Shown: positions 3,111-26,660 of the stretch, piece after piece
Layout of the letters: the number at the start of each line of letters is the position of its first letter
Position numbering within the stretch: the first letter of the stretch is position 1
Assembly: GCA_964493715.1 (NCBI GenBank)
Contig: CAZBPC010000026.1
Span: 1 to 35,131, forward strand
Length of the DNA: 35,131 nt
From: an uncultured archaeon
GTDB lineage: Archaea > Asgardarchaeota > Lokiarchaeia > Sigyniarchaeales > SOKP01
Direction: 5' to 3'
Notes under the pieces: generated by a model
Databases searched by the model: none
What the model saw: only the letters and a program-made list of their open reading frames with translations
What the model was told of the DNA's origin: nothing
Position numbers and translations under genes: made by a program

Positions 3111-3704
3111 ATGTCATCTACATCAAATAAAAATTCCAAAATTGTTGGAGCAACACAATTTGAAGAATTATGGAAAAACCCCATGAAAAAACCATTTTTA
3201 GAGAAAATAGTGCTAAATATAGGTATGGGAAGTGGAGGAGAAGAATTAGAAAAAGCTTCGACAGTTTTAGAAACGATCTCTGGAATGAAAGCTGTAAAAA
3301 CGATATCAAAAAAAAATGTAAAGGAATTTAACTTGAGGAAAGGCAGGGCAATAGGTACTAAAGTCACTGTGAGAGGAGCTGAAGCGGGAAAGCTTCTAAA
3401 AAGGTTATTAATTGTAAACAATAATAAAATCTTACGTAAAAGTTTTGATAATTTTGGAAACTTTGGATTTGGCATAACAGAACACATAACCATCCCTGGA
3501 GTAGATTATGATAACTTGATTGGAATTTTTGGATTGGATGTTGTTGGAAGGATAGTTAGACCTGGGATGAGAGTAAAATATAGAAGAATTCACAGAGCTA
3601 AAGTACCAAGACATCATTACGTATCTAAAGAAGAAGCAAAATATTTCTTAAAAGTTAATTTTGGAGTAGAAATTGTAAATAAATTAGAATTAGAATATTT
3701 TTAA
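3111..3704 (+). CDS. rpl5: 50S ribosomal protein uL5
   Basis: NPMKKPFLEKIVLNIGMG, IGTKVTVRG and FDNFGNFGFGITEH motifs. Confidence 0.97.
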   Translation: MSSTSNKNSKIVGATQFEELWKNPMKKPFLEKIVLNIGMGSGGEELEKASTVLETISGMKAVKTISKKNVKEFNLRKGRAIGTKVTVRGAEAGKLLKRLLIVNNNKILRKSFDNFGNFGFGITEHITIPGVDYDNLIGIFGLDVVGRIVRPGMRVKYRRIHRAKVPRHHYVSKEEAKYFLKVNFGVEIVNKLELEYF

Positions 3705-3725
3705 AATTAAAAAAAGGATGATTAA

Positions 3726-3875
3726 ATGCCACAAGGAAGACATAGCGGAAAAGGTCAAAGAGAATGCAGAAGATGCCATACTCATCGAGCAGTGATTAGA
3801 AGATATGGATTATATATCTGCAGGAGATGTTTCTATGAAATTGGAACAGAAATTGGTTTCCGCCGTTATGAATAA
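3726..3875 (+). CDS. rps14: 30S ribosomal protein uS14 (zinc finger), absent from the ORF track
   Basis: Hand translation [49 protein letters not shown] (49 aa), with two CxxC motifs, between L5 and S8. Confidence 0.96.
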
Positions 3876-3901
3876 TATAGTAAAAAAAATATGAGGTGTA
3901 T

Positions 3902-4320
3902 ATGAAATTGACAAATACAGTAGCAGATGCTTGTAATCTTTTAAAAAATGCGGAAATGGCCAGGAAGAAAGAAGTGGTCATTAGTCCAGCGAGTAACTTA
4001 ATGCAACGCATTCTTCGTATCTTTCAGCAACACGCTTACATAGGCGAAATTTAATAGGAATTCCTATTAAACGCAAGTTTGAAAGATATGACGATGGACG
4101 GGTAGGTAAGTTCAAAGTGGCTTTAGGAGGAAAAATCAACGAATGCAAGGCCTTAATGAGGCTTAATTATGGTTTTGGAGATTTTGAGAGATTAGAGCGA
4201 ACATTATTACCTGCTCCCGGACTGGGATTAATTATATTAACTACAAATCAGGGTGTAATGACCATGAAAGAAGCCGAAGAAAAGAAGATCGGTGGCATGA
4301 CATTATGCTATGTTTATTAG
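3902..4320 (+). CDS. rps8: 30S ribosomal protein uS8, split by a 29-nt intron: join(3902..4048,4078..4320), 129 aa
   Basis: Exon 1 MKLTNTVADACNLLKNAEMARKKEVVISPASNLMQRILRIFQQHAYIGE, then ATT TAA TAG. Exon 2 in another frame, FERYDDGRVGKFKV...TTNQGVMT...GGMTLCYVY. Joining restores the conserved YIGEFExxDDGR. Confidence 0.93.
4049..4077 (+). other. Putative BHB-type mRNA intron in rps8 (29 nt)
   Basis: Perfect 22-nt palindrome TTTAATAGGAATTCCTATTAAA (4050-4071), bulge AA|A (4047-4049), central helix GGCG/CGCA (3 of 4 pairs), bulge AG|T (4076-4078). The cuts restore the frame. Confidence 0.82.
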
Positions 4321-4339
4321 GAAATTGGAGGTATGAACC

Positions 4340-4918
4340 ATGGTAAAAACAATGTATCTTGAAGAAAAATTAGTGATTCCAGATGGAGTTGAAGTTACTG
4401 CCGATGAGAATCACCACATCACTGTAAAAGGTCCTAATGGCTTGATATCTAAAGACTTTTCTCATGTTAGAGGAATAAAAATAGCAGTTGAAGGAGATTC
4501 AATAAATTTTTCAACTAGTTTCCCTAAAAGAGGAACACTTGCTTTAACTAAAACAATTTACAATATAATAAAAAATTTAATAATTGGTGTCCAAACAAAT
4601 TATAAATATTCATGTAAAATTTGTTATAGCCACTTCCCCTTTAATGCTGAAATCAAACAAAAAAATAAAGAAATTCATTTTGTGAATTTTTTAGGCGAAC
4701 GAGCTCCTAGAGTGACTCAATATTTAGAAAATGTATCTGTTGAAATCCAAGGTGATGATGTAATATTGATAGGTCCAGACAAAGAAACATTGGGTCAAAC
4801 TGCAGCCAATATGCAAAAGAGTTGCCGTATTCGGAAAAAAGACCATCGTGTTTTTCAAGATGGCGTGTATTTGTATAAAAAACAGCTAGGTGACGAAGTT
4901 CTCTGGCAAATAAGATAG
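4340..4918 (+). CDS. rpl6: 50S ribosomal protein uL6
   Basis: VKGPNG, YSHFP, NFLGERAPR and DHRVFQDGVY motifs. Confidence 0.97.
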   Translation: MVKTMYLEEKLVIPDGVEVTADENHHITVKGPNGLISKDFSHVRGIKIAVEGDSINFSTSFPKRGTLALTKTIYNIIKNLIIGVQTNYKYSCKICYSHFPFNAEIKQKNKEIHFVNFLGERAPRVTQYLENVSVEIQGDDVILIGPDKETLGQTAANMQKSCRIRKKDHRVFQDGVYLYKKQLGDEVLWQIR

Positions 4919-15796: not shown

Positions 15797-15889
15797 GGCC
15801 CTTGACGGTTGGGGTGGTCTCTGACGCTGGGCTTCAAACCCAGTTATCCTGCGGAGGGATAGCGGTTCGATTCCGCTCGAGGGCCGCCA
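15797..15889 (+). tRNA. selC: tRNA-Sec (anticodon UCA), 9/4 fold, encoded CCA
   Basis: 9-bp acceptor GGCCCTTGA/TCGAGGGCC, 7-bp D stem GTTGGGG/CTCTGAC, anticodon arm GCTGGG-CTTCAAA-CCCAGT, long variable arm, 4-bp T stem GCGG/CCGC, GCCA end. Confidence 0.97.
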
Positions 15890-26375: not shown

Positions 26376-26407
26376 AATCCGTATTTTTATGGATTCCATT
26401 TTTTTTT
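26376..26407 (+). terminator. Hairpin plus oligo-T after rpl14e
   Basis: AATCCGTA-TTTT-TATGGATT followed by T9, abutting the tRNA-Ser 5' end. Confidence 0.4.
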
Positions 26408-26521
26408 GCAACGGTAGCCTAGCCTGGTAAGACGCTGGATTGGAATTTTTGGATAAACCATCCAATTGATCATACATCCAGTGTGAGTGATCACTCGGGG
26501 GTTCGAATCCCTCCCGTTGCG
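26408..26521 (+). tRNA. tRNA-Ser(GGA) with a 30-nt intron at 37/38 (26446-26475)
   Basis: Acceptor GCAACGG/CCGTTGC, G73, anticodon arm CTGGA-TTGGAA|A-TCCAG, variable arm GTGA/TCAC, T arm GGGGG-TTCGAAT-CCCTC, intron hairpin TTGGAT/ATCCAA. Confidence 0.9.
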
Positions 26522-26660
26522 TTTTGTTCTGCCCTCTAACTCATAGTAAATGCATCATTCATTCAATCATTTTACTATGTGAAATAAAGGTATATCCCTT
26601 TATTATATAAGGCAAAATTTTTAAAATTTTGAATCAATATTTAAAATATAAAAAATATTA

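Follow-up and report, generated by a model that had tools for sequence, protein, structure and literature searches.

The bulge-helix-bulge (BHB) intron of the cbf5 pre-messenger RNA (pre-mRNA) was reportedly described by Watanabe in 2002 and by Yoshinari in 2006. Once its intron is taken out, XBP1 mRNA is read in a different frame, and the endonuclease of XBP1/HAC1 splicing is Ire1, not the transfer RNA (tRNA)-splicing endonuclease. Passages of PMC2738675 (Yokobori 2009) present cbf5 as the only archaeal gene whose pre-mRNA splicing had been confirmed by 2009, other cases being predictions, and passages of PMC4090602 treat XBP1/HAC1 as tRNA-type unconventional splicing and describe relaxed BHB forms of archaeal tRNA introns (HBh'; Marck and Grosjean 2003) that have no outer helix. 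The DNA analysed here (the window, a stretch of 35,131 nucleotides (nt) from contig CAZBPC010000026.1 of assembly GCA_964493715.1) comes from an uncultured archaeon of the Promethearchaeota, a Loki-type Asgard lineage, and carries a gene for ribosomal protein uS8 that is interrupted by 29 nt at positions 4049-4077. This insert appears, with a probability of roughly 0.87 judged from the sequence, to be an archaeal BHB mini-intron that is spliced out of the mRNA of the only uS8 gene in the genome. It belongs to a larger set of introns that share its build, are 29-32 nt long and lie in protein genes of this lineage. In what follows, G000 is the genome that carries the window, G001, G003, G004 and so on are relatives used for comparison, C-labels are contigs and g-labels genera.

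In the transcript, the exon sequence GGCG would pair with the intron sequence CGCA to form the central helix H, the palindrome that fills most of the insert would fold into an intron hairpin of 9 base pairs (bp), and AAA and AGU would be left as 3-nt bulges on opposite strands. The tRNA-splicing endonuclease, probably a two-subunit alpha-beta EndA, would cut after the second base of each bulge, and RtcB would join the exon ends to give an mRNA reading ...AYIGE^FERYDDG... (the caret marking the junction), from which a uS8 of 129 amino acids could be translated. The unspliced uS8 mRNA would yield only a fragment of 50 residues.

Reading frames and predicted fold of the uS8 insert

The uS8 frame that opens at ATG 3902 (MKL...QQHAYIGEI) has 49 sense codons up to GAA 4046-4048, continues with ATT and then meets the stop codons TAA TAG; the second frame (FERYDDGR...CYVY) begins at 4078 and ends at the stop codon 4318-4320. 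Joined at the predicted cuts, the two exons match the archaeal model NF003115 without a gap, over positions 1-49 and 50-130, and encode 49 + 80 = 129 amino acids; exon 1 also matches positions 2-43 of Pfam Ribosomal_S8. The genome scores 100% for completeness and has a single uS8 match. The insert contains a perfect 22-nt palindrome with arms of 11 nt that are 100% complementary, which occurs once in the window and is also unique across the 3.68-Mb, 160-contig genome; it was seen in 2 of 100 shuffles when up to three mismatches were allowed.

The position of the cuts was calibrated on an intron of the same genome, that of tRNA-Gly(GCC) (C24:22458-22559), which was parsed by hand and whose ends are set by the anticodon loop of the mature tRNA. 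It is 30 nt long and lies at 37/38, with H formed by UUGC/GUAA, bulges CA^U and UG^A (the carets marking the cuts), a 9-bp stem and a 5-nt loop; in handedness, in the cut after the second bulge base and in hairpin size it equals the uS8 intron. A register scan of the G000 allele found 9 of 10 scored positions paired at the proposed register and 1-4 paired at shifts of -4 to +4. The mRNA and tRNA introns of G000 look like one structural class.

At this level the coordinates and the description in the original prediction, which had been made from the letters of the window, all hold. Translation reproduces the break of the frame at TAA TAG and its resumption at 4078, and the 22-nt palindrome, the AAA bulge and the GGCG/CGCA helix with three G-C pairs and one G-A are all present as described. 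The predicted removal of exactly 29 nt by cuts after 4048 and 4077, with a 129-residue product, agrees with the abutment of the exons at NF003115 positions 49 and 50 and with the tRNA-Gly(GCC) register. The outer exon helix had been called weak and the motif relaxed, and pairing at 2 of its 6 positions bears this out: the uS8 motif is of the relaxed HBh' type, h' being present and h absent, and falls outside the canonical hBHBh' form.

Sequences farther out in the exons can also pair. A distal exon-exon helix of 13-15 bp is predicted between two arms that flank the intron (Table 1), within a 96-nt fold with a z-score of -5.46; it is kept in all four alleles that carry an insert at the G000 site and is nearly invariant among them, with no covariation support. 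The observations speak neither for nor against a role as stand-in for the outer helix, a hand comparison having found the two arms largely pairable in the intronless allele of G006 too. A search of positions 3700-4500 on both strands against Rfam (E <= 1) gave no family match, group I and group II introns included. A length of 29 nt is far below ribozyme size.

Interrupted uS8 alleles and the exon tract beside the proposed intron

The C-terminal 80 residues of uS8 were used as the query in 133 genomes of the family, and an open frame of fewer than 120 amino acids was counted as short. Among the 130 genomes with a uS8 match, nine have a short frame, and all nine prove to carry an insert when their sequences are read. 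The inserts occupy two sites, 6 nt apart, that are designated site 1 (the G000 site) and site 2 (Table 1). Those of 30 nt keep the frame and contain stop codons. The 21 uninterrupted alleles of the genus that were read run continuously through ...GGA/GGG/GGT GAA TTT..., and the Gly codon is GGC in all four site-1 alleles. The intron is missing from the closest relatives of G000, which are G006, G001 and G022 (exon 2 protein identity 98-93%, G006 having 98%), and no short uS8 frame was found in the 17 genomes of two other families of the order (f2 and f4). At the position aligned with the uS8 start triplet, many relatives (loci L008, L010-L015, L017-L019 and other genus loci) have no ATG and read stop-K-I or stop-K-M.

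All nine inserts share one build, in which four exon nucleotides of H, a 3-nt bulge, a hairpin, the four complementary intron nucleotides of H and a second 3-nt bulge follow each other, the hairpin usually having a 9-bp stem and a loop of 4-5 nt; the length of the insert follows as 1 + 22 or 23 + 4 + 2 = 29 or 30 nt. Helix H has three or four of its four pairs in every allele and all four in five of the nine. At the proposed register 9-10 of 10 scored positions are paired across the nine alleles, a count that drops to 1-6 when the register is shifted by -4 to +4, and cuts made in silico after the second bulge base give AY[I/V/L]GEFE in all nine.

The sequences of the hairpins are nearly unrelated between genera and yet remain paired. 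Pairs were counted by geometry, a MAFFT alignment of ten intron segments having been dropped for placing gaps in the stems. Pairing is found in 108 of 117 cells, compared with a mean of 69.3 and a maximum of 83 when partners are shuffled, so that none of 2000 shuffles reached 108; sequence kinship inflates this test somewhat, though the site-2 introns share little sequence. Single stem columns contain up to five pair types, and H covaries as well (GCUU/AAGU versus GCCU/AGGU versus GGCG/CGCC). Compensatory changes occur even among the site-1 alleles of g1, where the pair 4051/4070 is U-A in G000 and C-G in G023 and G004, the pair 4058/4063 is G-C in G000 and A-U in G023, and the loops differ. 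The four site-1 alleles together have four pairs with changes on both sides.

The exon beside the intron is a mosaic. Over most of its length the uS8 gene of G000 is nearest to those of G006, G001 and G022, identity being 82% over the initial 90 nt and 91-95% in most of exon 2. The 57 nt at the end of exon 1, in contrast, match G023 at 89% and G004 at 82%, both of which carry the intron, whereas identity there is only 68-72% with G006, G001 and G022 and 54-72% with every one of the 21 further alleles in the comparison. Within the final 42 nt of exon 1 (4007-4048), G000 differs from G004 at one position and from G023 at about three (two of them in the last 39 nt), as against about 10-11 mostly synonymous differences from the intronless G006, G001 and G022; even G061, of another genus, is identical to G000 at 37 of the 42 positions by hand count.

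The uS8 intron appears to have been inherited or transferred along with some 40 nt of the exon next to it, and the comparison leans towards transfer or retention of the intron and the upstream tract as a unit by recombination, because positions that are unpaired in the predicted folds are shared too. The tract also contains an arm of the distal exon-exon helix (4012-4026, partner 4080-4094) and the hairpin 4033-4037/4042-4046, which would compete with H, so that constraint on the RNA could hold the tract constant instead.

Predicted splicing enzymes and probable introns in other genes of G000

Candidate enzymes for the proposed reaction are encoded in the genome. Two open reading frames (ORFs) of G000, of 207 and 205 amino acids, each have the N-terminal and the catalytic EndA Pfam domains; one of these paralogues aligns to the C-terminal repeat of fused-type NCBIfam models and the other to the N-terminal repeat, the second also touching the model of the beta subunit. 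The EndA of G000 is thus probably a two-subunit (alpha-beta)2 enzyme. The original prediction had asked for the subunit type of EndA, on the ground that heteromeric enzymes accept relaxed motifs, and the two paralogues suggest a heteromeric enzyme; which of them is alpha and which is beta depends on the half of the fused-type models that each matches. Since hardly any of the outer exon helix is present, the type of enzyme matters. Passages of PMC5829648 report an (alpha-beta)2 EndA with an L1 specificity loop in Asgard archaea, passages of PMC5829648 and PMC4090602 state that relaxed motifs are cut only by enzymes of this kind, and passages of a preprint (bioRxiv 10.64898/2026.10.13.758758) find that 44 of 60 Asgard genomes have a pair of full-length EndA paralogues, which would fit an (alpha-beta)2 enzyme. 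RtcB is also encoded in G000, according to a Pfam match.

The gene for this ligase is itself interrupted. At C2:12136-12164 on the minus strand (L050), a 29-nt insert of the same build splits rtcB within GGVGY^DINCGVR; its H is formed by UUGG/CCAA, its bulges read AUA and AGA, and its 9-bp stem carries a loop of 4 nt. A search with Pfam RtcB returns two pieces, 1-47 and 48-426, that lie 29 nt apart. Of the 39 genus genomes with an RtcB match, only G000 and G001 have rtcB split. Since the ligase would be needed to make the ligase, this intron implies a self-dependent loop.

Five further introns of G000, in the genes for aEF-2, leucyl-tRNA synthetase, NAD synthase and two thiolases, came from a tightened genome-wide filter on structure and reading frame, which left 75 candidates; those with conserved-looking junction peptides were picked, and five were confirmed by the adjacency of profile matches on the two sides (Table 1). 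The two thiolase paralogues are interrupted one codon apart, in the motif EVHDCFT. Structure alone fails to find introns of this kind in mRNA, and it was the tighter filter together with profile adjacency that succeeded. A strict scan for structure had 692 hits in the genome and 752 in its reversed sequence, and hence no enrichment; 17 of its hits passed an ORF test, compared with about 14 expected from random positions (137 of 7000). A relaxed scan gave 81,248 hits, of which 587 were ORF-restoring candidates, mostly ordinary gene boundaries; the candidate at C9:28937-28965, for instance, was rejected as such a boundary, its 3' junction being an ATG start.

Four other candidates stand apart from the confirmed introns. 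Pfam did not confirm the candidate in a DeoC-type aldolase gene (C65:15891-15922, plus strand), where exon 2 is too short to score, or that in a gene resembling a thiamine pyrophosphate (TPP)-enzyme beta subunit (C53:2033-2062, minus strand), where exon 1 is unscored. A thiolase-like gene (C145:299-328, minus strand) and a VWA-domain gene (C28:34412-34441, plus strand) have inserts of good structure that are likewise unconfirmed, the profile matches not extending over both exons.

Table 1. Features of the uS8 locus, sites of interruption in related genomes and confirmed companion introns. Coordinates without a contig label are those of the window.
Feature	Position or genomes	Strand	Length, evidence and remarks
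uS8 exon 1	3902-4048	+	49 codons, ATG start behind GAGGTG; translation, Ribosomal_S8, NF003115 1-49 of 130
Bulge-helix-bulge mini-intron (predicted)	4049-4077	+	29 nt; geometry and register scan; homologous inserts in G023, G004, G061
uS8 exon 2	4078-4320	+	80 codons plus stop; NF003115 50-130
In-frame TAA TAG	4052-4057	+	would limit the product of unspliced mRNA to 50 residues
Central helix H, 5' strand GGCG	4043-4046	+	exon, Gly and Glu codons; partner 4072-4075, 3 of 4 pairs plus G.A
5' bulge AAA	4047-4049	+	predicted cut 4048/4049, placed by comparison with the tRNA-Gly(GCC) intron of G000
Intron hairpin h'	4050-4071	+	9-bp stem 4050-4058/4063-4071, loop AAUU; identical with the 22-nt palindrome
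Central helix H, 3' strand CGCA	4072-4075	+	intron; CGCC in G061, giving a perfect 4 bp
3' bulge AGU	4076-4078	+	predicted cut 4077/4078; joined GGC GAA^TTT GAA = GEFE
Distal exon-exon helix, 5' arm	4012-4026	+	predicted; 15 nt, 87% complementary to 4080-4094
Distal exon-exon helix, 3' arm	4080-4094	+	predicted; complementarity, folding, comparison of four alleles
Exon-1 tract that follows intron-bearing alleles, not species relationships	4007-4048	+	pairwise differences, window identities
uS8 site 1, Glu^Phe	G000, G023, G004 (g1)		29 nt
uS8 site 1, Glu^Phe	G061 (g19)		32 nt
uS8 site 2, after Tyr (Y^I/V/L), 6 nt upstream of site 1	G003 (g1), G064 (g21)		29 nt
uS8 site 2, after Tyr	G050 (g15), G047 (g14), G145 (g23)		30 nt
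aEF-2 intron	C76:5211-5240	-	30 nt; TIGR00490 24-60 and 61-467
leuS (leucyl-tRNA synthetase) intron	C44:26027-26056	+	30 nt; TIGR00396 1-76 and 77-172
nadE (NAD synthase) intron	C39:8748-8777	+	30 nt; NF010587 5-155 and 156-260
thiolase-a intron	C28:23007-23036	+	30 nt; NF004810 215-299 and 301-398
thiolase-b intron	C120:4198-4228	+	31 nt; NF004720 exon 2 from 290; NF004936 4-306 and 309-401

The uS8 gene lies in a ribosomal-protein operon of the window that runs uS3, uL29, an Rpp29-like ORF, uS17, uL14, uL24, eS4, uL5, uS14, uS8, uL6 and onward, the names being a reading of the ORF translations. Elsewhere in the window, the intron option of ARAGORN predicts a tRNA-Ser(GGA) at 26407-26522 whose intron has about 30 nt and which is missing from the default scan, and a tRNA-Sec gene (anticodon TCA) is predicted at 15797-15889, which implies the use of selenocysteine.

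Alternative explanations and relation to known systems

Several observations weigh against the splicing of the uS8 mRNA. RNA contigs from three metatranscriptome runs lie only at 3708-3912 and 4180-4455, and none crosses the intron; these contigs differ from the window at several positions, may derive from relatives and are uninformative on splicing. In G000, helix H combines a G.A with three G-C/C-G pairs, the outer exon helix has the two pairs of six already mentioned (1-5 of 6 in the other uS8 alleles), and free-energy folds do not contain H, GGCG pairing instead with the upstream CGCUU (4033-4037/4042-4046). With so relaxed a motif, cleavage depends on an enzyme of broad specificity, which is predicted here. 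Sequences were read for the nine short-frame alleles and 21 uninterrupted genus alleles, other normal frames being counted by length only. The sister introns were picked by a structural filter, so that their structure is not independent evidence and profile adjacency is the only independent evidence for them. The local hairpin that sequesters the 5' strand of H occurs in all four site-1 alleles and is a possible competing fold.

Other explanations of the interrupted frame fit the observations less well. An artefact of assembly or sequencing, by which the assembler made the palindrome, might be suspected in a 160-contig metagenome assembly, palindromes being sequences that can arise artefactually; it is ruled out for practical purposes, because one DNA run without a flag as the source of the assembly yields a contig that spans 3756-4331 and includes the insert with a single change (A4059G, in the hairpin loop), and because homologous inserts occupy the same uS8 site in the separately assembled genomes of three other species (G023, G004 and G061). 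The insert thus belongs to the genomic DNA, as the original prediction assumed. That the palindromic insertion turned uS8 into a pseudogene, or that the two halves work as separate polypeptides, is hardly credible. The frame is indeed interrupted by stops, and a GTG-started ORF of 67 amino acids is present at 4117-4320, but that product would be without the conserved FERYDDGRVGKFK, and this is the only uS8 locus in a genome scored as 100% complete. Both exons are intact and conserved (the protein of exon 2 being 98% identical to that of G006), and in nine species the gene is flawless apart from the interruption, while the changes in the insert leave its structure in place. The preference of the original prediction for splicing over pseudogenisation is upheld by the single uS8 copy, the nine alleles with one architecture and compensatory changes, the presence of EndA and RtcB, and the sister introns.

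Recoding by the ribosome, either a -1 frameshift before the stops or a bypass of the hairpin of the gene-60 type, would give full-length uS8 from an unspliced mRNA. The frame of exon 2 has no stop within the insert, its open frame of 107 residues reaching 27 codons upstream of 4078; the last codon of exon 1 is followed at once by a stable hairpin; and a stop comes soon after the would-be take-off codon, as is said of known bypass sites. Unlike the programmed bypass of T4 gene 60 and mitochondrial byps, however, none of 15 introns examined has identical take-off and landing triplets. A frameshift would add about ten foreign residues in the conserved YIGE-FERYDDG core, and no single recoding event fits a set of nine uS8 inserts in which three are 30 nt long with in-frame stops and one is 32 nt long, whereas the BHB register accounts for all nine; recoding is therefore very unlikely. 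A different possibility is that the BHB-like element is cut but serves as a regulatory switch, with splicing that depends on uS8, a feedback on which the original prediction had speculated, or on stress as in XBP1/HAC1, instead of being a constitutive passenger. The unspliced mRNA would be untranslatable beyond codon 50, the alternative hairpin that hides the 5' strand of H in the four site-1 alleles could compete with the splicing fold, and rtcB itself has such an intron; the patchy occurrence of the uS8 intron, in 9 of 130 genomes and not in the closest relatives G006, G001 and G022, argues against a conserved regulatory role and makes a switch unlikely.

In the papers searched, cbf5 is the only archaeal gene for which splicing of an mRNA by the tRNA-splicing enzymes is confirmed. 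In this lineage, the one closest to eukaryotes, such splicing appears to be required for the ribosome, for translation factors and for the splicing ligase itself. As transcription and translation are presumably coupled, how the unspliced mRNA escapes translation becomes a testable question, one that bears on ideas about the separation of the two processes in eukaryotes. In such genomes, gene-finding programs will report uS8, rtcB, aEF-2, leuS and nadE as frameshifted, split or pseudogenes, and genome quality scores based on marker genes can suffer from such introns. Two sites 6 nt apart, occupation in 9 of 130 genomes and an exon tract that travels with the intron offer a handle on the gain, loss and movement of introns, and the hint that the uS8 intron is mobile at the DNA level adds to its interest. 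The chances seem evenly balanced for a broader proposal, by which Loki-type Asgard archaea would routinely splice mRNAs with their tRNA-splicing enzymes, and mini-introns in essential genes (those for uS8, aEF-2, LeuRS, NadE, thiolases and RtcB) would come and go between close species, spreading at the DNA level with a flank of exon, in the manner of homing-intron co-conversion but with no endonuclease encoded. In that case these archaea, the nearest relatives of eukaryotes among prokaryotes, would already have to complete mRNA splicing before translation.

The kind of element is already known, as a BHB intron in an archaeal protein gene (cbf5); the interest of the uS8 case lies in the gene, the lineage, the second site and the companion introns, that of rtcB among them. 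In the full-text literature, subscription papers and supplements lying outside this scope, no BHB intron was found reported for uS8, for any ribosomal-protein gene or for protein genes of Asgard archaea. Two accounts of tRNA introns in Asgard archaea (PMC11291895; bioRxiv 10.64898/2026.10.13.758758) mention no intron of a protein gene in their passages on mRNA and protein-coding genes. The tRNA genes that these passages describe as rich in introns belong to the same lineage and are presumably served by the same enzyme.

Like the cbf5 intron of the Desulfurococcales and Sulfolobales, as described in passages of PMC2738675, the uS8 intron is a short intron of the tRNA type in an archaeal protein gene that is gained or lost among relatives, and its host, like those of cbf5 introns, would have a hetero-oligomeric splicing endonuclease, which in G000 is suggested by the EndA genes. 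It differs from the cbf5 intron of Crenarchaeota in its host gene and in its lineage, and also in that uS8 has two insertion sites and that G000 has at least seven such introns, one of them in rtcB. With the BHB introns of archaeal tRNAs it shares a 4-bp helix flanked on either side by a 3-nt bulge that is cut once (the cuts in uS8 being predicted), whereas its substrate is an mRNA from a polycistronic ribosomal-protein operon, with no tRNA body to provide an outer helix. XBP1 and HAC1 likewise have a short mRNA intron bounded by stem-loops and removed outside the spliceosome by an endonuclease and a tRNA ligase, as is predicted here; their splicing is a regulated stress switch, whereas the uS8 intron is known from sequence alone.

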